Shown here in pieces: positions 3,258 to 47,382 of a stretch of 64,000 nucleotides of DNA. A program made the translations under genes and the position numbers. The stretch's first letter is position 1. Every line of letters starts with the position of its first letter. Location of the stretch: positions 6,940 through 70,939 of the forward strand of contig ONJT01000004.1 of the NCBI GenBank assembly GCA_900318245.1, read 5' to 3'. Origin of the DNA: an uncultured Bacteroidales bacterium. GTDB lineage: Bacteria > Bacteroidota > Bacteroidia > Bacteroidales > Paludibacteraceae. Below the pieces are notes generated by a model. That model was not told the origin of the DNA. It made no database searches and saw only the letters and a list, made by a program, of their open reading frames with translations.

Positions 3258-5930
3258 ATGAAAAACGAAGGCAACATAGAGGTTATTGGAGCGCGGGTGC
3301 ATAACCTGAAGAACATCAGCGTGTCCATTCCCCGAAAACGACTGACGGTGATCACCGGTCTAAGCGGTTCGGGCAAATCCTCTTTGGCCTTCGATACCAT
3401 CTTCGCGGAAGGTCAACGCCGATACATGGAGACCTTCTCGTCCTATGCCCGTGGCTTTATCGGCCAGATGCAGCGCCCTGATGTGGATAAAATCACCGGT
3501 CTGAGTCCCGTCATTTCCATCGACCAAAAGACCACTTCCAAGAATCCCCGCTCCACCGTCGGGACAATTACCGAGGTGTATGATTTTTTGCGACTACTAT
3601 TTGCAAGAGCCGCAACACCCTATTCGTACCTATCCGGCAAGCCGATGATTAAGTTCACAGACGAACAGATCATGGACTTGATCGTGCGGGAATATGCAGG
3701 AAAGAAGATCCTATTGCTGGCGCCGATGGTGCGCGGTCGTAAGGGTCATTATAAGGAGCTTTTCGACACAGTCCGCAAGAAAGGATTTGTGCATGTGCGG
3801 GTGGACGGCGAGGTGAAAGAGATCACGCCGGGCATGAAACTCGACCGCTATAAGATGCACGATATCGAAGTGGTAGTGGATCGTCTCAAACCCAAGACCG
3901 ACGCTTCAGAAACCGATACCCGCCGTCTCAGGCAGTCCGTGGATCGGGCTATGACGCAAGGTAATGGTATCATGATGGTTGCCGACGAAGCCGGAAACAT
4001 CCGATTCTTAAGCCGCAACCTCATGTGTCCGGAGACGGGATTGAGTTATGCCGAACCCGCCCCGCATACCTTCTCTTTCAACAGTCCGTCGGGTTGGTGC
4101 CCATGCTGCAAAGGCCTTGGACGCGTGAAAAGTGAAGAGGTAAGTAATGCTGAAATCGATAAAATTATTCAATCGGATAATTGGTACGAACAATTAGTTG
4201 ATCTTACTTCATCCCCTTCCCGTGTTACGGTTTCCCCCGCTGGGGGACACCTAGGGTGGGAGAAGATAATGGAGTTATCCGAGCCAACCGAAGAGGATGA
4301 TTCGGAGAAAGAAGAGTGGATCGAGTGTCCGGAGTGTCACGGTTTAAGGTTGAACAAAGAAGCCCGCAGTTATAAGTTCGGGCGGCACACGATCTCCGAC
4401 CTCGCGAACATGGATATCGACGAGTTGATTAAAGTGCTATCGGAATACTCGGAAGACCCGGATTTATCCGATAAGCAGAAGGCTATCGCCGAACCCATCG
4501 TAAAAGAAATCATCGGTCGGTTGCAATTCATGCAGTCCGTAGGACTGAGTTACCTAAGTCTCAACCGCAGTAGTGAGAGTTTGTCGGGCGGTGAGAGTCA
4601 GCGTATTCGTTTGGCTACGCAGATAGGTAGCCGCCTCGTGAACGTACTCTATATCCTCGATGAACCGAGTATCGGTTTGCACCAGCGCGACAACCAACGA
4701 CTGATTAAGAGTCTGAAGGAGTTGCGCGACATGAATAACTCCGTCATCGTCGTCGAGCACGACGAACAGATCATGCGCGAGGCGGACTGGATTGTCGATA
4801 TCGGTCCAAAAGCCGGCCGTTTAGGCGGAAATGTGCTGTTTAGCGGTACACCGAAAGATTTATTAAAGACCGACACCTTGACGGCAAAGTATCTGAAGGG
4901 AGAGGTAGAGATACCTGTGTATCGAGATACAGAGACATCGAAGCCGTCGGATAAATGGCTTACGCTTTCCGGCTGCACGGGCAATAACCTGAAGAACGTG
5001 ACGGCGCGGATACCCTTAGGCAAGATGGTGTGCGTGACGGGCGTGAGTGGTAGCGGCAAGAGTTCGCTCATCAATCAGACGCTCTACCCTATCCTCAGTC
5101 AGCGTTTCTACCGCAGTAAAGCGCAGGCGCTGCCGTACAAGAACCTCGAAGGCGTAGAAGCGATCGACAAGGTCATCAACGTAGACCAGGCGCCGATAGG
5201 ACGCACCCCGCGTTCGAACCCTGCGACCTATACCAACGTGTTTAATGATATCCGCGAACTGTTTGCGCAGTTGCCGGAAGCGAAGATACGCGGTTGGAAA
5301 GCCGGCCGGTTTAGCTTTAACGCCAAAGGCGGGCGCTGCGAAGAATGTACGGGTAATGGCTATAAGACGATTGCGATGCACTTCATGCCGGATGTGTTTG
5401 TGCCGTGCGAGGTGTGCGGCGGGCAGCGCTACAACCGCGAGACACTCGAGGTACGATGGAAAGGTAAGAACATCGCCGACGTACTGGATATGACAGTGAA
5501 CCAAGCCGTAGAGTTCTTCGAGGCTCAACCCACTATCCTGCGCAAGATCAAGACCATTCAAGACGTAGGTCTCGGATATATCAAACTCGGTCAGTCGTCC
5601 ACCAGTCTCTCCGGAGGAGAGAGTCAGCGTATTAAGTTGGCGACGGAGCTGTCACGGCCTTCGACGGGTAAGACCTTGTATATCCTTGATGAGCCTACGA
5701 CCGGCTTGCATTTTGAGGATATCCGCGTACTGATTAACGTGCTGCGCCGCTTGGTGGACAAAGGCAACACGGTGGTCATAATCGAGCATAATACGGACGT
5801 CATCCGTGCATGCGACTGGATCATTGACCTCGGTCCCGAAGGTGGACGAGGCGGCGGACAGATCGTAGCCGAAGGAACGGCAGAAGAACTGCGCGGCAAC
5901 AAACAAAGCATAACTGGAAAGTACATATGA
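3258..5930 (+). CDS. uvrA: excinuclease ABC subunit A family ATPase (UvrA paralogue with a short insertion domain)
   Basis: 890 aa. Two ABC modules (GLSGSGKSSLAFDT, GVSGSGKSSLIN; LSGGESQR twice) and zinc modules CPCCKGLG / CPECHG and CEEC...CEVCGG. Confidence 0.9.
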   Translation: MKNEGNIEVIGARVHNLKNISVSIPRKRLTVITGLSGSGKSSLAFDTIFAEGQRRYMETFSSYARGFIGQMQRPDVDKITGLSPVISIDQKTTSKNPRSTVGTITEVYDFLRLLFARAATPYSYLSGKPMIKFTDEQIMDLIVREYAGKKILLLAPMVRGRKGHYKELFDTVRKKGFVHVRVDGEVKEITPGMKLDRYKMHDIEVVVDRLKPKTDASETDTRRLRQSVDRAMTQGNGIMMVADEAGNIRFLSRNLMCPETGLSYAEPAPHTFSFNSPSGWCPCCKGLGRVKSEEVSNAEIDKIIQSDNWYEQLVDLTSSPSRVTVSPAGGHLGWEKIMELSEPTEEDDSEKEEWIECPECHGLRLNKEARSYKFGRHTISDLANMDIDELIKVLSEYSEDPDLSDKQKAIAEPIVKEIIGRLQFMQSVGLSYLSLNRSSESLSGGESQRIRLATQIGSRLVNVLYILDEPSIGLHQRDNQRLIKSLKELRDMNNSVIVVEHDEQIMREADWIVDIGPKAGRLGGNVLFSGTPKDLLKTDTLTAKYLKGEVEIPVYRDTETSKPSDKWLTLSGCTGNNLKNVTARIPLGKMVCVTGVSGSGKSSLINQTLYPILSQRFYRSKAQALPYKNLEGVEAIDKVINVDQAPIGRTPRSNPATYTNVFNDIRELFAQLPEAKIRGWKAGRFSFNAKGGRCEECTGNGYKTIAMHFMPDVFVPCEVCGGQRYNRETLEVRWKGKNIADVLDMTVNQAVEFFEAQPTILRKIKTIQDVGLGYIKLGQSSTSLSGGESQRIKLATELSRPSTGKTLYILDEPTTGLHFEDIRVLINVLRRLVDKGNTVVIIEHNTDVIRACDWIIDLGPEGGRGGGQIVAEGTAEELRGNKQSITGKYI

Positions 5931-7789
5931 TAACGAACCCGCTTGCAATTATTGCGCTTGTCTTAGCGACGATTTTGTTGGTACCGATGGTGTGCCGAAA
6001 GATCCGTATTCCCAGTATTGTGGGATTTATCATCGTCGGCATCCTCGTCGGTCCTTATGGTTTCGGACTGATACAAAGCGGCACGTCTATCCAGACGCTC
6101 GGCAAGATCGGCATGCTCTATATCATGTTACAGGCTGGTATCGAGGTCGATGTGAATGACTTCCGCCAGCAGCGCAATAACGCCATCACGTTTGGTATCT
6201 ATTCGTTTATCTTTCCGTTTATCTTAGGTGTCGCGACAAGTCTGCTACTCGGTTTTAACTGGGTGACCAGTACGCTGATGGGCGCGATGTATGGTAGCCA
6301 CACACTGATGACCTACCCTATTATCAGTCGCTACGGCGTACAGAAGAACCAGGCGGCTAATATCGCAATCGGCGGTACGATGCTGACCATCAGTCTCTCG
6401 CTGCTGGTGCTCGCGTACCTCAAGAGTCATTATGTCTATACGGACGAAATGAGTTTTTGGCACCAGGCTTTCCGCATCGCCATTACTTTACTGCATATTC
6501 TGGTTATCTTCCCGAAGCTCGCGCAGCGGTTCTTCAAGCGCTGGTCGGACGCGACAAGTGGTTTTCTGATCGTGATGACGCTGATGGTCTTCTCCGCTTG
6601 GATGGCTGAATGGGCAGGACTGGAAGGTATCTTGGGTGCCTTCATGTGCGGTGCTTCGCTCAATAGACTCGTACCGAACCTCAGTCCGGTGATGCAGCGT
6701 ATTAACTTCGTAGGAAACAACCTCTTCGTACCGCTGTTCCTCTTGGGCGTAGGTATGATGATTGATGTGTCGCTCCTTTGGAGCGGTTGGGCAACCATTG
6801 TCATCGCGCTCGTGATGATTGCGACGAAGTTAGTAGGTAAATGGGTGGCTGCGTGGTTAGCGCAAGTGAGTTTCGGGCTGCAGAGGACCGAGCGCCAATT
6901 GATGTTCGGTTTGACCCATGCTACTGCGGCCGGTACGTTGGCTATCGTGACGATCGGCTATGAGACGGGTATCTTCAATGCCGAGATTCTCAATGCGGCC
7001 GTGCTGATGATATTAGTGCTCTGTACGTCGGCTTCGTTTATCACGGAGTATGCGGCCAAGCAGCTGGCGCTGCAAGAACAGGCGCGGTTGGAGGCCGACA
7101 AGACCGATAACAGTTGGCTGATGCTGACGGTAGCCGAGAACCGGCATTATGAGTTACGCGAGTTGAGTGAGTTAGCCGAACTGCACACCCCGGATTTCTC
7201 GAACGAGTCCGACTGGTCAGATGCGACGCAGTTGGTGAACAGTCAGAGCAAAGCGGCTATCATCTATCATCCGGCACAACCCATCAACACCATCTCCCGC
7301 ATCCTCGTAGCCGTGCCGCGCTACGCAGAGAAAGAGCACGATTTCATCTCGTGTTTCGGACTGATACGCCGTCTGAGCAGTCAGATTGGCGCGCGTGTGA
7401 TCTTCTTCACCAACGAGGACACGCAGAAGACCATTCAGGCCCTCTGCCGCCGTAAAGGTAAGTTCCTGCGCGCGTCGTATCGCGAGATGGAAGACTGGGA
7501 AGACGTGTTGATGATCGCCAAGCAAATGGCGCCGGACGACATGATCGTGATGGTCAATGCCCGTCCTTCGACTCCATCCTTCAACCCGCTCTTCGAGCAG
7601 ATTCCGGACATGCTGGCGCGGTTCTTCAGCGACCATAGTTACATGATCGTCTATCCGGAGCAAGAGACCGGAAACAGAATTCCGGACTTGTTAACGGGCG
7701 ACACGACGCAGGCCAGCAAGACATGGTCGATCGTGAGCGCGATCAAGCAGCGGATTGTTCGGATGATGGAGAAGCGTCAACGCCTCTGA
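5927..7789 (+). CDS. cation:proton antiporter (CPA2/Kef-like) with a C-terminal soluble domain
   Basis: 620 aa. About 11 hydrophobic segments and an N-terminus typical of the Na+/H+ exchanger family (IRIPSIVGFIIVGILVGPYGFGLI). ATGA overlap with uvrA. Confidence 0.75.
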   Translation: MITNPLAIIALVLATILLVPMVCRKIRIPSIVGFIIVGILVGPYGFGLIQSGTSIQTLGKIGMLYIMLQAGIEVDVNDFRQQRNNAITFGIYSFIFPFILGVATSLLLGFNWVTSTLMGAMYGSHTLMTYPIISRYGVQKNQAANIAIGGTMLTISLSLLVLAYLKSHYVYTDEMSFWHQAFRIAITLLHILVIFPKLAQRFFKRWSDATSGFLIVMTLMVFSAWMAEWAGLEGILGAFMCGASLNRLVPNLSPVMQRINFVGNNLFVPLFLLGVGMMIDVSLLWSGWATIVIALVMIATKLVGKWVAAWLAQVSFGLQRTERQLMFGLTHATAAGTLAIVTIGYETGIFNAEILNAAVLMILVLCTSASFITEYAAKQLALQEQARLEADKTDNSWLMLTVAENRHYELRELSELAELHTPDFSNESDWSDATQLVNSQSKAAIIYHPAQPINTISRILVAVPRYAEKEHDFISCFGLIRRLSSQIGARVIFFTNEDTQKTIQALCRRKGKFLRASYREMEDWEDVLMIAKQMAPDDMIVMVNARPSTPSFNPLFEQIPDMLARFFSDHSYMIVYPEQETGNRIPDLLTGDTTQASKTWSIVSAIKQRIVRMMEKRQRL

Positions 7790-38697: not shown

Positions 38698-38724
38698 ACA
38701 AAAAAAGACACCCCGAGGGGTGCC
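38698..38724 (-). terminator. rho-independent terminator closing the minus-strand islet operon
   Basis: Minus strand GGCACCC-CUCG-GGGUGUC followed by U7. Confidence 0.75.
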
Positions 38725-38746
38725 TTTCGCCATGTAGGCGCAGTGC

Positions 38747-39142
38747 TTACGCTCCAGCTAACGCTGCGTCGTACGCATCGCCGCAAACCTTCCAGAGGTA
38801 AGCTTTCATGGTCTTTTTGCCAGTCGGGGTGTCCTTCTGCGCGAGGAAGTTGGAGATGTCCGTCGCTTGCTGCATCAGGTCCTTGCTGCGCGCTTTGACA
38901 GCTGCTGCTACCGAAGAGAAGCGAGCACGTGCTGCGAGCTCTTTCGCCTGCGGCACCGTCGAGCGAGCGTAAGCGTCGGAACGCTTAGCATACAGACGCT
39001 GGCAGGCATCGCTGGTGGAAGCCGCTTGACGGTGGGTCGCAACGAGGTAGTTACCGCACTTGTGACCATCTTTCTTTTTCGGCTTCATCAGGGCTCCGGA
39101 GATCGTTTCGATACCCGCGGGGCCTACTACTACTTTTGCCAT
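38747..39142 (-). CDS. hypothetical protein
   Basis: 131 aa, Ala/Lys-rich, no family recognised. Coding-like composition and followed by a strong terminator. Confidence 0.55.
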   Translation of the reverse strand: MAKVVVGPAGIETISGALMKPKKKDGHKCGNYLVATHRQAASTSDACQRLYAKRSDAYARSTVPQAKELAARARFSSVAAAVKARSKDLMQQATDISNFLAQKDTPTGKKTMKAYLWKVCGDAYDAALAGA

Positions 39143-39229
39143 AACTTTGTGTTTTTCATGGTGTTAGACATTACCGGAAAACGTCCGGTGCGTTCACAGA
39201 TTCTTCGTTCAACCTATCTGTGTTTCAGG

Positions 39230-39415
39230 TTATTTCTTGACACCTTGGTACTCTTCTACCGTCTTGGTAGAGATGGTGGTCGTGGTTTTGCTTTGCGCGG
39301 AGTCGTTCTGCTGTACGTAAGTTGCGGAAGTGGTGATAGTCCGCCATGCTTTGCAACTACTCACGCCGACCACGACGCTAAGCAGGATCAATGACATCAA
39401 TAAAAATTTCTTCAT
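39230..39415 (-). CDS. small Thr-rich lipoprotein (o-spanin-like position)
   Basis: MKKFLLMSLILLSVVVGVSSC lipobox. The start overlaps the 3' end of the upstream gene by 38 nt. Confidence 0.55.
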   Translation of the reverse strand: MKKFLLMSLILLSVVVGVSSCKAWRTITTSATYVQQNDSAQSKTTTTISTKTVEEYQGVKK

Positions 39416-39755
39416 CTTCTTCAAACATTTCTTTGCGTTCTTCAACGCGGTTAAACATTACGTCTAAATATGCCATGCCGGCAATATCGGTGAGGATACA
39501 TCCTTGCGAATGTTCGGGCTTGGTGCCTTTATGGATGCGGATGCCTTCGCGGTCGGGAACTTCATCGACGAGCGGTAGATTCTTCTTGAACTTCGGCGAC
39601 CAGGTTCGCTTGAGCGGGTACCTTCCCGCAGGGATGAGGTAGTCCGCGTTCTCGAGCGTCGGAGCGCTATGCGTCTGTTCCTCGAAGGGAAAGGTCATTA
39701 TGCCCGTCACTGCTTTGCCCGTCGGGCGATTTCGTTGGAGGGTTAGTGTTATCAT
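39378..39755 (-). CDS. DUF5675 / YkuD-like (L,D-transpeptidase-fold) protein
   Basis: IRIHKGTKPEHSQGCILT matches the H-x-G...S-x-GC[IV] active-site pattern of the YkuD fold. 125 aa. Confidence 0.55.
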   Translation of the reverse strand: MITLTLQRNRPTGKAVTGIMTFPFEEQTHSAPTLENADYLIPAGRYPLKRTWSPKFKKNLPLVDEVPDREGIRIHKGTKPEHSQGCILTDIAGMAYLDVMFNRVEERKEMFEEDEEIFIDVIDPA

Positions 39756-39900
39756 GGTTATTACGATATTTATGCTTGTACGTATAGTCGATTCCGAACA
39801 GCGCTCCGGCGAAAGTGGCGACCTCGCCGAAACCGATGAGGAGCGATTCGTGGATCTGCCCTTGCGGCTCGATGAAGACCCCGCAGTAAAGCATGATCAT
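39667..39900 (-). CDS. small hydrophobic protein (holin-like position)
   Basis: MIMLYCGVFIEPQGQIHESLLIGFGEVATFAGALFGI... The TACTTTTG -7 box at 39962-39969 excludes the longer ORF-track start. The 3' end overlaps the next gene by 89 nt. Confidence 0.3.
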   Translation of the reverse strand: MIMLYCGVFIEPQGQIHESLLIGFGEVATFAGALFGIDYTYKHKYRNNHDNTNPPTKSPDGQSSDGHNDLSLRGTDA

Positions 39901-40031
39901 TCCTCCAATCGAGAGGACGGCTGCCGTAAGCAATTGTATGTCGAGTTTCTGTTTCACGGTGCAAAAGTACACCTTCTTTTTGACCTGCGCAAGAAAATCC
40001 CCGACTTCTTCAAAGATAGCCGGGGACTTTC

Positions 40032-40253
40032 TCAAACTTGCGCTAAAAGGGGTAGCGGAATAGGGAATCGGAGATCGTATCCGCAGAACTGACTGAAGGC
40101 GATGACGTCCTGTTCCGAGAGGGTCTTTTTCGTTCGTAGGTCTTCGCGGTGCGCTTTTTTGCAGAAGTACCGGAAGAACCACGGGAAGTCGAGCGTGAGG
40201 TCGTGACCTACTGCGGTACTAAGCCGCTTGCAAAGGATATTCTTGGGTGTCAT
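40032..40253 (-). CDS. hypothetical small protein
   Basis: MTPKNILCKRLSTAVG... Its ATG overlaps the stop of the upstream 50-aa ORF (ATGA). Followed by a hairpin plus T-run. Confidence 0.45.
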   Translation of the reverse strand: MTPKNILCKRLSTAVGHDLTLDFPWFFRYFCKKAHREDLRTKKTLSEQDVIAFSQFCGYDLRFPIPLPLLAQV

Positions 40254-40402
40254 AAGCTCCACCCTTTCTTGGCTTTTGCAGTCATAAAACACACGTACTC
40301 GCCTTTACTGTTTTTGCGACGGGTTAATACTATTCCCATCTTGGCTGCTTGACGATGGGCCTCCGTCCATTGTTCGTTTTCTTTGTCTCTTTTCTTTTTC
40401 AT
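40250..40402 (-). CDS. unlisted 50-aa basic ORF
   Basis: Hand translation: MKKKRDKENEQWTEAHRQAAKMGIVLTRRKNSKGEYVCFMTAKAKKGWSL*. Below the ORF-track length cutoff. Translationally coupled to the next ORF. Confidence 0.4.
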   Translation of the reverse strand: MKKKRDKENEQWTEAHRQAAKMGIVLTRRKNSKGEYVCFMTAKAKKGWSL

Positions 40403-40607
40403 AATGGCCTTTTTTTCAGTATTTTACAATGATGTTCTCGGGGTTATCTCGAGGTCTTCTCGAGATCAATTCGAGGATAACACCTGTTTGTTTGTTGTTT
40501 GTGCGGGATATTATCCCGCGTTTTTTAGCGTTTATGCGCCGCTCATCTATGTGCGGCTTTTCTTTTCGTTTATTAGCCCGGCATCGCATGCCGGTTTACG
40601 TCGTTTA

Positions 40608-40925
40608 TTATCCGGCTTTCACATAGATAGTTCTTTGTCGGTCTTTTAGGAACTTCCGCACCCATCCGTCTTGGTTCGCCTGTGTCCCGTACTTCCGGTA
40701 ATACTCATCCGCCGAGATCACCTGCACTTTGGGAATGTTGTCCTGAATAGCCTTTACGGGGTCGTAGTGGACAAACTTTCCGGCCTGCAACTTGCTACGT
40801 ATAGTTTCGTAGATTTGTTGCTGTTGCCGCGCTGTAAATGTTTCCCAAAGGCGCAGACATTCTGCTGTTTTTCCGGGCACTATCGGGCGGGTGTTAAGCA
40901 TTCCTATGAGTTGCTCAAAAAACAT
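40608..40925 (-). CDS. hypothetical protein
   Basis: 105 aa, no family recognised. Confidence 0.5.
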   Translation of the reverse strand: MFFEQLIGMLNTRPIVPGKTAECLRLWETFTARQQQQIYETIRSKLQAGKFVHYDPVKAIQDNIPKVQVISADEYYRKYGTQANQDGWVRKFLKDRQRTIYVKAG

Positions 40926-41025
40926 AAAATCTTAAAAATAGTTGTTGTTGTTCAAACACGCTGCATAGTATAATGTTCAAGAAACAACAACTTTTCTTTA
41001 TTCTTTTGGTTCTTTTCTGTTTTCT

Positions 41026-41412
41026 TTAGTCGATGACTTTGACCGTCAGTTTGATCTCGTCGGGCTCTTTGTCCGGGTAGAGCTGTTTGAAGGTCTCGAC
41101 GTAACCGGCCATGACCGCGGTGCGGGCTTTGACGCAGTTCTGTTCCGTGACTTTCTCGCGGGCATTCTCGCGCCATTTAACCGCTTGCTCTTGCGGGTAT
41201 TTGTGGTAATCGGCGAAGTTAAAGATGTCGGTGCGCTGGAGTTGGAACGTGCCGACGTTAGGGATTTGGAACTCGCCGCGGTCGAGGCCTTGTTCGGCAA
41301 GGACGGCAACGGCTTCTTGAGTGGCGGCGTCAATGATGGCGTCTATCTGAGCCTTGATGGCTTTCTCTTGATTGCGCAGGGAGCGCAGGGTTTCTAAATT
41401 GTTAGTTAGCAT
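41026..41412 (-). CDS. hypothetical protein with an N-terminal coiled coil
   Basis: 128 aa. 7-nt overlap with the upstream HNH gene. Confidence 0.5.
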   Translation of the reverse strand: MLTNNLETLRSLRNQEKAIKAQIDAIIDAATQEAVAVLAEQGLDRGEFQIPNVGTFQLQRTDIFNFADYHKYPQEQAVKWRENAREKVTEQNCVKARTAVMAGYVETFKQLYPDKEPDEIKLTVKVID

Positions 41413-42044
41413 AATGATAAAAAATTTGGGGAATATAAAATGATTTTTAAATCTGCTTGAGTAAGACGGTCATAGCGAGACTTGTTAGTGGCCTTGACTA
41501 TTGCCATGCGGTCGAAATAGCGCAAGAGGTAGGGGCGCCGGATTTCGGGGGGATTGATACCTTGGTTGCGCAGTTTAGTAAGGAAGCCCCCGTCGCGGCT
41601 GTTGATGGCATTGGAGATACAGCGGAGATTGGGAACAAAGTTGTTGGTGGTACATCCGTCGATATGGTCGATAGTCATACTGGCAGGGATCTCCGTGTTG
41701 CGCCAAGCCATATAGACGGCATGGGAAGCAAGGATATGTTTACCGCGACCGAAAGCATCCTTGAATTGCAGATACTCAGCATTGCCATGCGCGTAGGATT
41801 TTCCGCACTTTACCGGAGTTGCGTTCTTCAACACTTTCCGTCCGTCGGGATAGACGCTCACGCCTATTACGCCACCTTGACCGTTGTTGGCATAGAACGA
41901 GATGTTATTCTCGGGGTTCGTGCCGACATAGGCGACCCGCACGTTGTTAAAGAGGAAGGACGAGCCCACCAGATCCGGCTTTCGGATGATTTCAAACCTG
42001 CGTTTTCGCAGGCCTTTTTGATTAGAAATTTTATTCATAAGCAC
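41406..42044 (-). CDS. HNH endonuclease
   Basis: MTIDHIDGCTTNNFVPNLRCISNAINSRD is an HNH_3-type H-N-N motif. Confidence 0.7.
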   Translation of the reverse strand: MLMNKISNQKGLRKRRFEIIRKPDLVGSSFLFNNVRVAYVGTNPENNISFYANNGQGGVIGVSVYPDGRKVLKNATPVKCGKSYAHGNAEYLQFKDAFGRGKHILASHAVYMAWRNTEIPASMTIDHIDGCTTNNFVPNLRCISNAINSRDGGFLTKLRNQGINPPEIRRPYLLRYFDRMAIVKATNKSRYDRLTQADLKIILYSPNFLSLC

Positions 42045-42097
42045 CGCCAGTCGGAGGGATGTTTATTCCGAAAGGCGATGCAAAAGTAGAGGTAATT

Positions 42098-42167
42098 TTG
42101 TGCTATTTGTGGCACATTTTGTGCTATAATTGTGCTACAAATATGCTACTTGTGCTAAAAGTGTGCT
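42098..42167. repeat. seven TGTGCTA boxes at about 11-bp phasing
   Basis: Boxes start at 42098, 42107 (TGTGGCA), 42119, 42130, 42141 (TATGCTA), 42150 and 42161. Confidence 0.9.
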
Positions 42168-42183
42168 ATTCGTAAAAAGGTAT

Positions 42184-42209
42184 AAAAAAAACGACCGAAA
42201 TGGTCGTTT
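42184..42209 (-). terminator. rho-independent terminator of 42208..42588
   Basis: Minus strand ACGACC-AUUUC-GGUCGU followed by U8. Confidence 0.7.
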
Positions 42210-42588
42210 ATTCTTTTCTATGGCGGTTAAGATTTGAGCCTAAAGAGTGCTCATCTACGAACCAGCCGAACTCTTTGGTAAGGCGATCACATAAGTCTCG
42301 CAAAGACCGTTCTTGGACGAAAGTTTTGAACTCGGCATCGAAACGACTTCGCTCCTTAATATACTTACGTACTTGGGTGTATTTGTTTTTCTGCGGTATG
42401 GCGAGAATAGGCTCAGAATCGATTTCCTCAGCGGTTTCATAGCGGTCGTGCTGTTCCGGCAGCTCGTCAGTCTCTAACTGCCGCAATATATCAGCTACGC
42501 TATTGTCTTTGGCATTGATGTGGTACTCTTTGCTATTATCGTGATAAGTACCGATGTTAACTACTCCTCCATGAATTTTCAAACTCAT
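42208..42588 (-). CDS. hypothetical protein
   Basis: Start trimmed to MSLKIHGGVVNIGTYHDNSKEYHI.... It has its own TAATTTTG box at 42763-42770. C-terminal basic helical region. Confidence 0.5.
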   Translation of the reverse strand: MSLKIHGGVVNIGTYHDNSKEYHINAKDNSVADILRQLETDELPEQHDRYETAEEIDSEPILAIPQKNKYTQVRKYIKERSRFDAEFKTFVQERSLRDLCDRLTKEFGWFVDEHSLGSNLNRHRKE

Positions 42589-42624
42589 ATGCTTTTCATT
42601 AAAAAGCACGGAATAGGTGGGATA

Positions 42625-42729
42625 ATAGACAAAGTCTGCGAAACCGTGGTAATATCCCACCTATCCATGCACATGGATATATGGGACATATTTCTCCTTA
42701 CCACTTTAAAGTTTCGCAGACTTGTCTAT
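42625..42729 (-). promoter_or_regulatory. 105-nt imperfect palindrome in the 5' leader of 42208..42588
   Basis: ATAGACAAAGTCTGCGAAAC (42625-42644) pairs with GTTTCGCAGACTTGTCTAT (42711-42729). Inner helices are GTGGTAA/TTACCAC and TATCCATG/CATGGATA. Confidence 0.75.
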
Positions 42730-42801
42730 AAAGGAATATGTCGATTCAATCAAATTCGGGTGCAAAATTACTGCTTTTATTCGATATATGCAAATTTTGC
42801 G

Positions 42802-43986
42802 TTATTTTTCTACATTGTAGGTCTTACTATTGTCGTTGTAAGTGTCGATGTGAACGGTGAGGTGAGCGGACTGCTGGGCTTCCATTGCTTGTCGCATTTT
42901 AATCACCTCTTTTTTAACCTCCATTAACTCATCCACCACCTCATTGGGCTTGCTTGGCTCGATATTTCTTGAGAATGGCAGGGACTTTATGTAGTTCTCC
43001 ATGAATTTCCAATCGGGTTCACCGGAGGGGGTTGCTGGGAGTTTGATCTTTGAATTTCTTAATTTTATCTGACTACATTTTCTACCATAACTATATCGAT
43101 ATTGCTCTTTATTAATCAATGTAACTAAGAAAATAGCAATATATCTATTCATTTCAAAAAGCGGAGTTAATACCTCAACATGGTCAGATGCAGAGAAGTC
43201 ATTCTCCTGATAAGAGCAAAAACCAAGCACGGCTGAGTCTACTGTTAGAACTCCACCTTTTTCTGTACAATAATTATAATATCCCTCTACACCATTATTT
43301 ACAGCCTGAGTTGTTACGTAAGGGTATTTGCCCTTTCCGTATGTCTCCAATTCTTCAATAGGTGTAGTTTTAGAACCCGATATCATGAAAAGATCTGTAT
43401 AATTAAACCATTTCCAATCTTGTGTATTGAGTTTTATTTTCTCTTGCAGTTGGGGTTTGGTGTCGTATTTTTGTAGCCAAACTCTTTGTGCTTTCTTGGG
43501 GAGTTGTGGGATGATTTGGTCTTTGACAAAATCTTCCATGTATTTCCAATCGGGGGTTCCTTCAGGAGTTACAGGGAGTTTGATTTTAAATTCACTAATT
43601 CTATCACAACAATTACGTCCATATGAAAATCTATATTGTTCTTTATTGATTAGCACGCATATGTATAATAAAGTTTCAATCTTTGCTTCAAACTTAGCGA
43701 CTAGAGCCTTAACCCTCGTTCCTACATAAAAATCATGCGTTTGAACAGAAGCGTAAAAATTTCCTCTATCAGCTAGAGAAATGGTTTTTGTGTAGTCATA
43801 CAGTTTATGTGTAGCCAAATATTGAGTAGTTGTCGTCACTCCATTATTTTCAGCCTTATGACCAATAACTGGATATTCCCCAGGAGAAAGTTCAGAATAT
43901 ATGAGATCTTTTCCTGTATCAATAGAAAATAATTGGTCTAAATAAAACCATTTCCATGTATTAGTATCCATGTTATTCATTCTCAT
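42802..43986 (-). CDS. restriction-modification specificity subunit (HsdS/BcgIB-like, two TRDs)
   Basis: Duplicated conserved regions KIKLPVTPEGTPDWKYMEDFVK and KIKLPATPSGEPDWKFMENYIK, and WKWF at the start of each half. Confidence 0.85.
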   Translation of the reverse strand: MRMNNMDTNTWKWFYLDQLFSIDTGKDLIYSELSPGEYPVIGHKAENNGVTTTTQYLATHKLYDYTKTISLADRGNFYASVQTHDFYVGTRVKALVAKFEAKIETLLYICVLINKEQYRFSYGRNCCDRISEFKIKLPVTPEGTPDWKYMEDFVKDQIIPQLPKKAQRVWLQKYDTKPQLQEKIKLNTQDWKWFNYTDLFMISGSKTTPIEELETYGKGKYPYVTTQAVNNGVEGYYNYCTEKGGVLTVDSAVLGFCSYQENDFSASDHVEVLTPLFEMNRYIAIFLVTLINKEQYRYSYGRKCSQIKLRNSKIKLPATPSGEPDWKFMENYIKSLPFSRNIEPSKPNEVVDELMEVKKEVIKMRQAMEAQQSAHLTVHIDTYNDNSKTYNVEK

Positions 43987-45721
43987 TAAGAATTAAGTAC
44001 GCAGCATAATCCTGTAATTTGGCTATAAAATCAGCGTCAGAAAGTGTGCTATAGTCCGTTTCCATGTAAGCCTCGGCGCACCACTCATCTTCGGCAGTTA
44101 CGTGTTTAACGACCGATAATCCTACTTTCGATATTTTATGCGTATATAGATATAACCATTCCTTTTCTATCTCATCCCATTTATTTTTGACATCAACACG
44201 ACCAACACCTTTGCGTTTTTCAAAACCGTCATTCTTGAAATAGCCAAAGAAAGTTTCTTTGTCATCGCTATGAGGACGACCCAAATCAAAAACCATACAA
44301 CAAGCGACAGCACTTGCACCAGGGTAGAACATCTCCGCTGGGAGTGAGAATACGGCATCCAAGGTGTGTTTGTCTAACAACTTCTCCTTAATATCGGCAA
44401 TAACTCCGCTAAGTCCAATGGCACTAGACATCGGAAGCAATGTAACTAATTTACCCTTCCCAACGCAATCAGCGATATATTGTACAAAATATAGGCCTTT
44501 CGACGGGTCTGTGGATGTCTTTCCCCATGTTTTCGCAAATGTCTGAGGTACTTGATCTTTTGAGGCATTGTATGGAGGATTCATAAGCACGACATCTACA
44601 CGAGCTGTATTTTTTATCCAATCCTCTTCATCAAAACAAGATGAGCATTTGATGTTTGTGTTACCATCGCCATGTATCAACATATTTGTTGTAGCGAGGC
44701 CAAATACATTTTGGTCTGCTTCTATACCATATATCTGGTGTGCTTTAACGCCTTTGCGCTCAGCATCTGTCTCACATTGATTTAGAGCCATGGTCATTGC
44801 TTGTACCAAGAATGTACCAGAGCCACAAGTTGGATCAAGAATCCGTGTCGTTTTGCAAATATCTGCCACTTTGCACATAAAATGCGCTATATGGTTTGGA
44901 GTAAAGGCCTGATTCTTATCGTCTTTATTCACATACTTATTAAACGTAGTGAAGAAATAACTCAATATATCATGTCCTTCACTTGTAGCCGCATTGATAT
45001 ACGGCATTATATTCTCTTTTATATAATCCAGTAATTTGCAAAAGTTTTGTGGGACAAGTTTTTTAACTTTATGATCCTCCAATACTTTTGTTTGGAGGAT
45101 AGCAAGTTTTGTGGCTTTATCCATGCTTTTATCTAACAAGACACCCAATTTTTCCTTTATGCCTTCCAGAATTTGACCTGTTGACATATCATCTTGATAT
45201 GTAAGTCCATTTTTTAGAGCCAAGAGGCAAGTCCCCACAAACTGGCTGCGTAATGACTCTGAGATACCATTATCATGTAGTTTTTTATTGAGTGTAGAGG
45301 TGTTTTCGAGCACAGTAGACATGTCGTTTTTGTTCTGCGGTTTGAAATACTCTGCGTACTCGGCTATGGTTTTGAGTTTTTTATCACTCAAAAGTTCGGC
45401 TGCTTTATCTTTTGCGATTTGCCACACTTGGATTTTATCGTTCGAGGTATTTGCCAAGATAGCGATAATGTTATCGGCAATATTGTATTCTTTCTCAAGA
45501 GTAACGTATGCAAATAGTTGCGCCTTATCTTCTTCCTTAAAGCGTTGCTTAGTTTCTATCAGTACCGCAGTCTTTGTTTCTTCATCAAAAAACCGGATAT
45601 CCAATTTGTAGTGGCCAGAGAGAGAACGGCCCAGTACTTGAGCATAACTAAACTCGCCGTTTTCAATATTGGATGTGAGGAAGTCAAGCCCCACAGTTTG
45701 AATCATTTTTATTCGTTCCAT
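43973..45721 (-). CDS. gamma-class N6-adenine DNA methyltransferase with an N-terminal PD-(D/E)xK-like domain (BcgIA-like candidate)
   Basis: Motif I ILDPTCGSGTFLV and motif IV VLMNPPYNASK. The N-terminal about 110 aa contain D...VLIETKQ. Confidence 0.8.
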   Translation of the reverse strand: MERIKMIQTVGLDFLTSNIENGEFSYAQVLGRSLSGHYKLDIRFFDEETKTAVLIETKQRFKEEDKAQLFAYVTLEKEYNIADNIIAILANTSNDKIQVWQIAKDKAAELLSDKKLKTIAEYAEYFKPQNKNDMSTVLENTSTLNKKLHDNGISESLRSQFVGTCLLALKNGLTYQDDMSTGQILEGIKEKLGVLLDKSMDKATKLAILQTKVLEDHKVKKLVPQNFCKLLDYIKENIMPYINAATSEGHDILSYFFTTFNKYVNKDDKNQAFTPNHIAHFMCKVADICKTTRILDPTCGSGTFLVQAMTMALNQCETDAERKGVKAHQIYGIEADQNVFGLATTNMLIHGDGNTNIKCSSCFDEEDWIKNTARVDVVLMNPPYNASKDQVPQTFAKTWGKTSTDPSKGLYFVQYIADCVGKGKLVTLLPMSSAIGLSGVIADIKEKLLDKHTLDAVFSLPAEMFYPGASAVACCMVFDLGRPHSDDKETFFGYFKNDGFEKRKGVGRVDVKNKWDEIEKEWLYLYTHKISKVGLSVVKHVTAEDEWCAEAYMETDYSTLSDADFIAKLQDYAAYLILNENE

Positions 45722-45732
45722 AAAATTATCGC

Positions 45733-46623
45733 TTACTCGTTGCTACCTAAAAATGCAATGTTCTTAAGAGGAAGAAGGTTCTTATCCTCATCCGTCATCT
45801 TTGCGTAATACTTTTGCCACATCGTGATAAACTCGTCGCCATCAATGAGTTTGACGTACTCTTTGCTAGTGCTTGCTTCTTGTTTTGCCGGAGGTGTAAA
45901 CGTCCCCGACGTAACAAACAAACCAATGTCTCCGTCACGCAGGATGCCCACCAGACTGCGTATTTCTTTTGCCCCAATTGGGGTGTCCGGGTAGTGCTTA
46001 ACTTGCACCTTTATACGTGGAGTCTGCGCACCGAGCGGATCTACATACGCCAATACATCAACACCACCATCCTTTCCTTTTGGAGCAACGAAGGGAGTAT
46101 GATAGTCCATAGCACGAAGGAGTGCAGCTACGAGATCTTGGAACTCGTAGGGGTTCTTTTTGCGGATATAATCACGGATTCCATTAAGAGCGCGCTCCTC
46201 TAATTCCTCTAAGTCAATGATAGTAGCCTTTGCATCTTCTAATTCCTCCCCATCATCACCAGAGGCATCTTTTGCATGCTCTTTTTTCCAAGTCCGATAT
46301 GCAGTCTGTGCTATTTCTTGAATCTCTTCGGGAGACTTAGAAAGAATTTTTTCTCCCTCAGGGGTCAGATACCAAATACTATTCTTCTTGATAAGGAATC
46401 CCGCAAGGACATAGTCCACAGATGAGAAATGATAGATGTTCTGCCAACGGACACCTCCTTTGGAGGTAGTTTCCATTTCGTAGTCAGAAAACTCAACCTC
46501 ATTTCCTACTTGTTCCATCAATTGACCGGAACGCATGCTACCCCCATTTTTCTTGAGGATAGAGAGGGCGGCATACATACTCTTTGCCGCAGTTAAGAAA
46601 GTCTTAGAATATTCTTTTGTCAT
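45733..46623 (-). CDS. Mrr-like restriction endonuclease (Mrr_N winged helix + Mrr_cat)
   Basis: N-terminal wHTH (AALSILKKNGGSMRSGQLMEQV). C-terminal nuclease core GKDGGVDVLAY...IKVQVKH...GLFVTSGTF. Start trimmed to MTKEYSK. Confidence 0.8.
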   Translation of the reverse strand: MTKEYSKTFLTAAKSMYAALSILKKNGGSMRSGQLMEQVGNEVEFSDYEMETTSKGGVRWQNIYHFSSVDYVLAGFLIKKNSIWYLTPEGEKILSKSPEEIQEIAQTAYRTWKKEHAKDASGDDGEELEDAKATIIDLEELEERALNGIRDYIRKKNPYEFQDLVAALLRAMDYHTPFVAPKGKDGGVDVLAYVDPLGAQTPRIKVQVKHYPDTPIGAKEIRSLVGILRDGDIGLFVTSGTFTPPAKQEASTSKEYVKLIDGDEFITMWQKYYAKMTDEDKNLLPLKNIAFLGSNE

Positions 46624-46636
46624 ATCTCGTGGTATT

Positions 46637-47036
46637 TTATTCAGGTAAACTATGATGCCACACATTATTCTTATGCAGGCACAGAATGAGTTGGCGGGCA
46701 TCGGGGTTGCCGAGGTCCGCTGCGCGGAGCAACATGATATCCGCCTCGTCGCGGGAGACAGTGGTGCAGGACGCAGGGAAAGAGGCGGGGTCCTGCCACT
46801 TTAGGTACGCTGCTGCGCCGGTGATGAACAGTGCCCTGGGGTCCTCGTCCAAGTACGCGCGCTCCGCATAATATAAAAGAGAATCGGGGTCACAGAAAAC
46901 AGAACTGCTGACCTCGACCGGAGAAGAAGCGGCACGATAACCGCACACAAATACACCAATAAAAAATAAACCTAAGAATGCAAGCGAGACGTGCTTTGCG
47001 ACATTTCCCTTACTGGGGGGGGGTAAAATTGAACAT
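46637..47036 (-). pseudogene. lipoprotein gene (Sel1/TPR-like C-terminus) interrupted by a C9 tract; phase-OFF candidate
   Basis: The ATG at 47036 reads MFNFTPPQ* with C9 (47015-47023). With C8 it continues as MFNFTPPSKGNVAKHVSLAFLGLFFIGVFVCGYRAASS... into the 46637..46948 ORF. TACCTTTG -7 box at 47077-47084. Confidence 0.55.
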
Positions 47037-47171
47037 TTGATTTTGTGTTGTCATAGTGTCAAAACCTTTGCGGCTGCAAAGGTACAATAAAAAAATGACA
47101 TACACAAGGAAAAAGAAAAAAAATCGGCATGCAATGCCGCATCAATAGACGAAACTCCCCTAAACAGCCAT

Positions 47172-47309
47172 CACCGAAAGTAAATACCCACCGGAGGTAT
47201 ACACCCACCGGAGGTAAGCACAAAGGGACGCCCGCCTGCCTGCCCACCGAAGGTACGAACAACAGAAAAACAAACTAACCACCGGAGGTAAACACAACGA
47301 CCGAAGGTA
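47172..47309. repeat. six direct copies of CCACCGRAGGTA
   Basis: 11-mers start at 47172, 47189, 47206 (17-nt tandem period), 47245, 47280 and 47299. Confidence 0.9.
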
Positions 47310-47382
47310 ACAGCAAAAAAGAAGAAAAAAAGCAAGCGCGCTTGCGTATATCAGAAAAATATTGTATCTTTGCAGCCGGATT

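Follow-up and report, generated by a model that had tools for sequence, protein, structure and literature searches.

The DNA analysed here is a 64-kb stretch from an uncultured rumen Bacteroidales bacterium (hereafter, the window), and our subject is a run of nine C residues (C9) near the 5′ end of a minus-strand gene that is predicted to encode a small envelope protein. This gene heads the cargo slot of a mobile island and is followed by genes for an Mrr-like endonuclease, a fused restriction endonuclease-methyltransferase (REase-MTase) and a specificity subunit (Table 1). On the minus strand, a Bacteroidetes-type −7 box is followed by 22 nucleotides (nt), ATGACAACACAAAATCAA and an ATG (47036), from which the codons TTC AAT TTT ACC CCC CCC CAG TAA can be read directly, yielding MFNFTPPQ and a stop. 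A run of C8 or C11 would place this ATG in frame with the 125-codon body of the gene (47014–46640; translation SKGNVAKHVSLAFLGLFFIGVFVCGYRAASS...HSLPE), whereas C9 places it out of frame. By the same frame arithmetic, C6, C7 and C10 would also be OFF lengths in the window.

A preliminary description of this stretch had proposed a slipped-strand phase switch at the C9 run, with the gene OFF as sequenced. Its readings of the ATG, the exact C9, the eight-residue peptide with its stop and the −7 box (TACCTTTG) are all accurate, and translation agrees that C8 or C11 joins the ATG to the frame of the 46637–46948 open reading frame (ORF), which is open upstream through the tract. The distance between the stop of the gene and the Mrr start, given there as 14 nt, is actually 13 nt. 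The position of the start codon was also correct, but a second in-frame ATG (47054) lies upstream of it and is used in the gene calls of ON relatives. Most of the related loci that carry this leader have an in-frame ATG 5–6 codons further upstream, and the ATG at 47052–47054 is likely to be the physiological start of the gene.

The C9 tract is the sole G/C run of ≥7 nt in the window. In dinucleotide-preserving shuffles, the mean number of C8 matches was 0.81, and 19 of 100 shuffles reached the observed number of 2. Taken alone, the tract is statistically unremarkable; because a run of C8 or longer is not rare by chance in the window, the case rests on the comparison with relatives, from which the significance of the tract derives.

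A homologue search with the frame-corrected protein yielded 42 relatives, none of which contains a Pfam domain; their genome loci belong to metagenome-assembled genomes (MAGs) of uncultured rumen Bacteroidales and Paludibacteraceae. In a scan of metagenomes for the leader, the search pattern permitted any 4–16 nt at the position of the tract and admitted synonymous variants of the 13-nt stretch that precedes it, and exact-protein look-ups added further loci. An exact database look-up with the product of the OFF-state ORF of the window returned no record, and the neighbouring MTase and Mrr proteins were used as exact look-up queries for near-identical contigs.

The exact MTase protein of the window was found on 16 contigs of other rumen samples. 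Contigs from independent rumen metagenomes that are 99.97–100% identical to the window carry C8 (ON), C9 or C10, and the tract is the only indel among these near-identical contigs and often the only difference (over 3.8–5.1 kb in several pairs). One contig with C9 (L054) is 100% identical to the window over 6.2 kb, and three further near-identical contigs (L050, L052 and L053) also carry C9. A contig with C8 (L049) differs from the window over 12.2 kb by three distant single-nucleotide polymorphisms (SNPs) and one indel, which is at the tract; it is ON, and a 138-aa gene has been called in it. In a contig with C10 (L056), one extra C is the only difference over 5,114 nt. The same pattern was obtained in a second lineage, identified by the exact Mrr protein of the window, in which C8 is present in L059, L062 and L063 and C9 in L060, L061, L064 and L065. 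Within this lineage, L061 and L063, and likewise L062 and L064, differ by no SNP and by one tract gap each over 3.8–4.1 kb, and L059 and L060, compared over 5.9 kb, by one SNP and one tract gap. No other site of the locus changes nearly as fast as the tract, whose length has shifted in both directions (to C8 and to C10). The comparison of tract lengths in related strains, which the preliminary description had named as a check, thus came out in favour of a switch, and a fixed C8 with a private sequencing error in the window is excluded by the recurrence of C9 in L050, L052, L053 and L054; five independent assemblies give C9 where the background is otherwise identical.

As a side observation, three long contigs (L064, L065 and L066; 54–328 kb) terminate no more than 35 nt from the poly-C tract; one contig start lies 2 nt before the tract and another 3 nt after it. 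These ends fit either length heterogeneity within samples or a multi-copy leader that breaks the assembly graph. We considered them as proof of within-sample heterogeneity and rejected this, since the leader is multi-copy in some genomes and can break assemblies for that reason.

A census of 40 leader-bearing loci gave the lengths C6 (one locus), C7 (two), C8 (15), C9 (20) and C10 (two). The tract is uninterrupted in all 40, although the metagenome pattern admitted any 4–16 nt; an interrupted form, which would have spoken for a non-slippery tract, was found in none of them, and the three synonymous third codon positions within the tract are invariant in all loci. The length that keeps the frame depends on what follows: it is C8 where AGTA follows the tract and C9 in the lineage of P0032, where ATAT follows. 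Database proteins from ON alleles (P0001–P0004, P0028 and P0032) have the form M...MFNFTPP and are read straight through the tract, those of P0001–P0004 starting with MTTQNQMFNFTPPS. The OFF alleles P0005, P0006 and P0008 were called from an internal GTG (MCGYRAASS), as expected of gene-calling software that meets an OFF allele. Many other homologues have an ordinary lipoprotein signal (MKH..LILGAC) and carry no leader.

Among the 11 OFF loci first examined, nine have a full-length ORF with no other lesion across 125–156 codons; the exceptions are L008, which has a second lesion, and L003, in which the 3′ end continues in frame into a 925-aa ORF. The ratio of nonsynonymous to synonymous substitution rates (dN/dS) is 0.10–0.47 (dS 0.18–0.74) in all pairs, including pairs of two OFF copies, such as the window and L004 (0.16) or L014 and L021 (0.18). 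These ratios speak for purifying selection on OFF copies, whose ORF stays intact. In L031 the frame is lost by deletion of a G that adjoins the tract. Separately, in L052, which over 6.4 kb shows no other difference from the window, an in-frame deletion of 6 nt (GGTTTA) at window positions 46967–46972 removes two residues from the hydrophobic segment of the gene.

The variation of the tract, its uninterrupted state and the constraint on OFF ORFs support the proposal that the C9 run, located early in the coding sequence of a small envelope protein gene, is a slipped-strand contingency tract and that the gene is OFF here; we assign this interpretation a probability of about 0.8. The alleles compared demonstrate, at the level of predicted reading frames, that the poly-C length sets the frame of the first ORF and that both states are common in nature. 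We infer that the length changes by replication slippage, that the OFF state abolishes the envelope protein and that switching is reversible. Replication slippage is the established mechanism for such tracts (PMC11868660, PMC12707154). In this mechanism, the gain or loss of one C during replication would shift the starts at 47054 and 47036 into or out of the frame of the gene body. The ON product (C8, or C11 by arithmetic) would begin with M(TTQNQM)FNFTPPSKGNVAK and continue into a hydrophobic anchor with a Cys and a Sel1-like domain, whereas in the C9 state translation would end after MFNFTPPQ.

Table 1. Features of the switched gene, its cargo slot and the island backbone in the window
Feature	Position	Strand	Remarks
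Left island end (~47166), with terminator-like hairpin CGGCATTGCATGCCG and T8 (47139–47125)	47125–47166	−	Just upstream of the promoter
−7 box TACCTTTG, Bacteroidetes type	47077–47084	−	Box and its distance to the ATG conserved in most related loci; promoter role predicted from the consensus
Palindrome CCTTTGC-AGCC-GCAAAGG	47065–47082	−	Overlaps the −7 box; candidate operator
Second ATG (MTTQNQ-MFNF...)	47052–47054	−	In frame, 18 nt upstream of the ATG below; ON relatives P0001 and P0004 called from here
ATG of the preliminary description	47034–47036	−	Heads the short frame MFNFTPPQ
Invariant 13 nt ATGTTCAATTTTA (MFNF-T)	47024–47036	−	Includes the start codon 47036–47034; directly before the tract
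Poly-C tract, C9 (G9 on the plus strand)	47015–47023	−	Hypermutable element; C9 is the OFF length here; read directly
TAA closing the eight-codon peptide MFNFTPPQ in the C9 state	47010–47012	−	
Switched gene, body of 125 codons and stop	46637–47014	−	Hydrophobic segment with Cys (46990–46943), then two predicted Sel1/TPR-like helical hairpins
Spacer, switched-gene stop to Mrr start (ATG 46623)	46624–46636	−	13 nt; contains TACC
Mrr-like Type IV restriction endonuclease	45733–46623	−	First cargo gene; Pfam Mrr_cat (4.8e-25) and Mrr_N; PADLOC mREase_IV, PDC-S02
Fused REase-MTase (Type IIG/BcgI-like A subunit), 582 aa	43973–45721	−	Pfam N6_Mtase (1.7e-33); PADLOC REase_MTase_IIG (2e-64)
Specificity (HsdS-like) subunit	42802–43986	−	Last cargo gene; Pfam Methylase_S (3e-30); two target-recognition stretches
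−7 box TAATTTTG, putative promoter of backbone gene p150	42763–42770	−	Right border of the cargo slot
First clear intrinsic-terminator-like hairpin past the switched-gene promoter	42189–42209	bidirectional	
HNH_3 protein	41406–42044	−	
Membrane protein with two transmembrane segments	C-terminal half of 39667–40182	−	
DUF5675 protein, lysin-like	39378–39755	−	
Small lipoprotein MKKFLLMSLILLSVVVGVSSC	39230–39445	−	

The tract is part of a leader that recurs with different downstream sequences. Homology among the loci starts at the promoter, and the 13 nt directly before the tract (ATGTTCAATTTTA) are identical in all 40 leader loci, even where the protein bodies are only 42–50% identical. The palindrome over the −7 box may be an operator: paired changes in both arms are found in L002, L025 and L031 (CTTTTGC..GCAAAAG) and in L028 (ATTTTGC..GCAAAAT). 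The usual fusion partner of the leader is the present lipoprotein family. In one locus (L016), where the tract is C8, the leader continues directly into a 1097-aa Type IIG REase-MTase (PADLOC, 2e-302). A query with a doubled-leader protein retrieved two short proteins only, one of which led to L067, where the leader (C10) forms a separate 54-aa ORF that ends 56 nt before a lipoprotein gene; that gene has its own canonical signal and is followed by hsdM. From this distribution, the promoter, palindrome, MFNFTPP codons and poly-C tract are best described as a discrete module joined to differing downstream sequences. No match to the leader was obtained on the phage genomes of IMG/VR. In a divergent lineage of the leader (L007, positions 5940–6000, L016 and L028), the 5′ untranslated region from promoter to ATG consists of about five tandem CATAAAT-like heptamers, the copy number of which is equal in the three loci.

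The upstream region of the switched gene also contains a 38-nt inverted repeat (47071–47108 and 47341–47378; 76% complementary), whose arms share the extended box TAyCTTTGCAGCCG and are divergent promoters, one for the switched gene (minus strand) and the other for a DUF3667 gene (plus strand). An invertible promoter was considered and rejected; the repeat consists of two similar promoters that face outwards, and its second arm lies outside the island. No recombinase gene was found in the 38.7–47.2 kb region.

The switched protein has no match in Pfam (E ≤ 0.01), PHROGs or NCBIfam, and the same is true of the products of most backbone genes of the island; a profile search of PDB with the switched protein gave nothing meaningful. 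The preliminary description had called its N-terminus a textbook lipoprotein signal peptide. This holds for most homologues, which have the canonical lipobox L-x-[GS]-A-C (P0007, P0010, P0028, P0032 and the family alignment), but not for the copy in the window (...FFIGVFV-C-GYRA), whose putative lipobox VFV|C has V at position −1 and fails the pattern [LVI][ASTVI][GAS]-C. The family therefore appears to be lipoprotein-like, and members of the branch of the window may be signal-anchored, atypically processed or lipoproteins. An AlphaFold2 model built from the family alignment (predicted local distance difference test score, pLDDT, 84) consists of an N-terminal hydrophobic helix followed by two helical hairpins, and its best Foldseek matches in PDB are Sel1-repeat proteins, with weak scores (E about 0.8–1, template-modelling score 0.4–0.47). 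The best available description, based on this model, is a small periplasm- or envelope-facing protein-binding module.

The preliminary description placed the gene at the right edge of a defence islet. Its position is more than that of an edge: the gene holds a conserved place at the head of a cargo slot, and the slot belongs to a mobile island. The next gene starts 4–18 nt past the stop of the switched gene, or overlaps it, in nearly all loci. A junction of the form TGA/TAA-(TGCC/TACC)-ATG, typically with 4 nt, recurs across seven unrelated cargo types; stop, 4 nt (TGCC, TACC or CGCC) and ATG are found in L001, L005, L007, L008, L014, L025, L028–L030, L032 and L039–L044. This fixed junction suggests translational coupling or a precise cassette boundary. 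The cargo comprises Type I HsdMSR (L001, L025 and L028), BcgI-like REase-MTase with a specificity subunit (L007, L014, L038 and the window, which has Mrr in addition), Type III mod/res (L021 and L044), Tsp45I (L023), an EcoRI-type methylase with GmrSD/HNH (L033), a WYL protein with an AriA/NsnB-like ATPase and HsdM (L005), Type IIG enzymes (L039–L043) and 877–925-aa proteins that have no family match (L003, L004 and L031). The large proteins of L003 (6169–8946, 925 aa) and L004 (6359–9016, 885 aa) and a 350-aa protein of L005 (9265–10317) have no match in Pfam or PADLOC, and that of L031 (6337–8970, 877 aa) has no precomputed Pfam match; by their position, the large slot proteins that lack a family match are candidate undescribed defence genes.

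In the window, the 582-aa cargo protein looks like a fusion of a PD-ExK nuclease (motif recognized by eye) and an N6-MTase, and with its separate specificity subunit it is classified by domain content as BcgI-like (Type IIB), not as a classical Type I system that lacks HsdR. Neither the MTase gene nor the specificity gene of the window contains a homopolymer tract of this kind. In L060 (C9, OFF), the REase-MTase gene (3418–5151) is split into ORFs of 224 and 344 aa. The only substitution between L060 and L059 (C8, ON) presumably caused this split, which would be a possible independent inactivation of the restriction-modification (R-M) gene.

The arrangement of the slot bears on how far the effect of the switch may extend. 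The switched gene would be the promoter-proximal gene of an operon with exchangeable defence cargo, and in the OFF state a 380-nt untranslated stretch and the loss of stop–start coupling may lower cargo expression too. Such a reduction is a tentative proposal, made because the cargo has no consensus promoter and lies at a fixed coupling distance. A stronger version takes the defence operon as the main target of the switch, with stop–start coupling and Rho-type polarity rendering C9 cells transiently low in restriction and modification; it extends the contingency-tract explanation and does not exclude it. The 4-nt stop-to-ATG junction, fixed over seven unrelated cargo types, argues for this version, as does the finding in 13 loci that the 150 nt preceding the first cargo gene contain no consensus −7 box (TAnnTTTG). 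On the minus strand of the window between 47077 and 42770, only one other TAnnTTTG is present, at 43696 inside hsdS, and no terminator-like hairpin lies between the switched gene and the cargo, or anywhere from the promoter onward before 42209. The direct fusion of the leader to a Type IIG REase-MTase in L016 points in the same direction, and R-M systems elsewhere are widely subject to slipped-strand phase variation (PMC12707154). However, homologues that have ordinary signal peptides and no leader head the same cargo slot, and the link between lipoprotein and cargo therefore needs no switch. Furthermore, internal cargo genes of L005 bear their own −7 boxes, the direct fusion was seen in one contig only, and OFF prevails among near-identical contigs whose cargo is intact. 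We regard the defence operon as a possible main target, with the balance of these observations against it. The most general form of this idea, in which the promoter, the MFNFTPP codons and the poly-C tract would act as a portable, mutation-driven gate that switches interchangeable R-M operons through stop-4 nt-ATG coupling and polarity, is rather doubtful.

Recoding would explain the C9 copies with no change in the DNA, the tract being read through by +1 frameshifting at CCC-C or by RNA-polymerase slippage. Few sequences are as prone to +1 shifts as CCC-C, and transcriptional slippage can occur on long homopolymers. That C9 is the commonest length (20 of 40) and that the nucleotides around the tract are unusually conserved would also be compatible with recoding. 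We nevertheless consider it improbable: C8 read-through copies are common and are annotated as full-length proteins, the stop lies one codon past the tract, and no frameshift element or other RNA family was found around the tract in Rfam (E ≤ 1). Frame arithmetic also fits better, because the in-frame length tracks the bases that follow the tract (C9 in the P0032 lineage, otherwise C8). Some leakiness of the OFF state at the CCC-C codons is possible.

We give equally little credence to an ordinary pseudogene, that is, a one-off frameshift in a dispensable, decaying gene. Although most copies are out of frame in unbiased samples (nine OFF versus six ON, plus the window) and lesions beyond the tract exist (the second lesion of L008, the G deletion of L031 and the 6-nt deletion of L052), nine of the 11 OFF copies have no other lesion, and dN/dS stays at 0.1–0.47 even between OFF copies. 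The tract has never been interrupted despite its synonymous third codon positions, and repeated length changes in both directions on near-identical backgrounds would not be expected from a single historical lesion. A sequencing or assembly artefact, in which C9 is a miscall of one fixed real length (e.g. C8) in an intact, ordinary gene, is the least credible explanation, because even though homopolymers are the classic site of indel errors and the contig ends of L064–L066 near the tract show assemblers struggling there, C9 recurs on a 99.7–100% identical background in different samples and assemblers (L050, L052, L053 and L054), the second lineage has several independent assemblies with C8 and several with C9, lengths from C6 to C10 are observed, and a platform with random errors would have added indels to the 12.2 kb of L049, which has no further one, and to the long ORFs of the window, which are intact.

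Several points weigh against the slipped-strand interpretation of the C9 run, or against parts of it. As the shuffles indicate, a run of C8 or longer in the window is not rare by chance. The comparison sequences are all metagenome assemblies, in which homopolymers are the most error-prone sites; it is unlikely, however, that the same consensus errors would recur at C8 and at C9 in many Illumina-type assemblies. The non-canonical lipobox VFV|C makes the location of the product uncertain, and the protein has no family match and only weak fold matches (E about 0.8), which give no function. With respect to the cargo, the polar effect rests on the spacing, the missing consensus promoters and the single fusion in L016, and Bacteroidetes promoters can deviate from the consensus. 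Finally, the OFF length C9 prevails among near-identical contigs (nine of 14), which would be odd if OFF also silenced the R-M system, because that system has been kept intact.

The proposed switch can be compared with several known systems. In the gonococcal opa genes, CTCTT repeats lie in the leader peptide, and in pilC of Neisseria gonorrhoeae a poly-G tract lies in the part of the gene that encodes the signal peptide (Jonsson et al. 1991, as cited in PMC11741434). As in these genes, the repeat separates the start codon of an envelope protein gene from the part that encodes its hydrophobic or signal segment, the addition or loss of one unit would toggle the frame, and a conserved leader that bears the repeat is common to several paralogous loci. 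Unlike them, the present locus belongs to rumen Bacteroidales and to an unrelated protein family, and the switched gene heads a defence operon on a mobile island.

Phase-variable R-M systems provide a second parallel. The Type IIG gene cj0031 of Campylobacter, with its poly-G tract, is one example. Others, including phasevarions, involve Type III mod or Type I hsdM/hsdS genes (PMC12707154, PMC11868660). The physical association of a slippage-prone simple repeat with R-M genes is shared, and L016 has its tract within the 5′ end of a Type IIG REase-MTase ORF, exactly as these systems do. A tract within the methyltransferase gene, by which a phasevarion is recognized, was found only in L016; the window and most relatives carry it in the upstream envelope gene, which is not an R-M gene, and an effect on methylation would be indirect. 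The poly-G/C contingency genes of Campylobacter jejuni and Helicobacter pylori (PMC11868660) resemble the present locus in having coding G/C homopolymers of ∼8–10 nt, one-unit alleles in near-identical genomes, and surface- or defence-related functions. Those genomes contain dozens of tracts, whereas the 64 kb of the window contain one G/C run of ≥7 nt, located on a mobile module.

Within the same order, reviews account for phase variation in Bacteroides only by inversions, such as those of promoters, and by hsdS shufflons (PMC11868660, PMC7394358). Stochastic variation of surface and R-M functions is common to these switches and the one proposed here, but theirs depend on site-specific inversion or recombination and not on replication slippage; neither an invertase nor a functional promoter flanked by inverted repeats was found at the present locus. 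The cargo slots of P2/P4 prophages and satellites are hotspots for defence systems. Here, too, a conserved backbone flanks a slot that holds differing defence systems (across copies, Type I, IIB/IIG and III systems, a Type II REase, Mrr, GmrSD and an AriA/NsnB-like ATPase), but the island is integrase-less and uncharacterised, and its slot is headed by a lipoprotein gene that, in one branch, bears a poly-C switch.

We came across no account, in the literature searched, of homopolymer slippage switches in Bacteroidales, of this protein family or of this island. The mechanism is a known one, and the taxon, the gene family and the architecture are new; the portable leader at the head of a defence-cargo slot could represent a new variant if an effect on the operon were confirmed. 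The locus provides a well-supported slippage switch from abundant uncultured rumen bacteria that was detected in public assemblies alone, and it exposes a previously undescribed defence hotspot, in which varied cargo lies at a fixed distance behind one small envelope gene. If the leader does act as a gate, an R-M system that enters the slot would gain phase variation with no repeat of its own, a kind of 'phasevarion adaptor', in an order whose phase variation has been attributed to invertases. Gating of the cargo would also have consequences for phage–host dynamics, for horizontal gene transfer in the rumen and for the reading of methylation heterogeneity in metagenomes.

The left end of the island was mapped to the point where homology starts between copies of the same island in two chromosomal contexts. 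On the other side of the slot, a short block (42753–42795) is conserved in relatives directly past their differing cargos and is followed by backbone genes in the order p150, HNH_3, p128, membrane protein, DUF5675, small lipoprotein and p131. The backbone (about 7–9 kb) contains no integrase. It includes a lysis-cassette-like trio at 39230–40182 on the minus strand, and DUF5675 has been proposed as a C82-like peptidase lysin (bioRxiv 10.64898/2026.04.11.717860); to judge from its gene content, the island may be phage-derived or satellite-like. At least three copies of an TACCTCCGGTGGG(T)-type motif are present in the intergenic region upstream of the island end (47177–47295). These repeats were considered as island ends or attachment (att) sites and rejected, as they are host-side and occur only in contigs with the DUF3667 context. 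The island itself (about 38700–47166 in the window) is 99.8% identical in two contexts (L059 versus L061/L062), namely DUF3667/PagL, as in the window, and serine hydroxymethyltransferase (SHMT)/AraC, and in more distant relatives it lies beside valyl-tRNA synthetase, deoxycytidine monophosphate (dCMP) deaminase and other genes. The presence of the same island in differing chromosomal contexts indicates that it is mobile, though no recombinase gene is visible, and several MAGs carry two copies of the island with different cargo.

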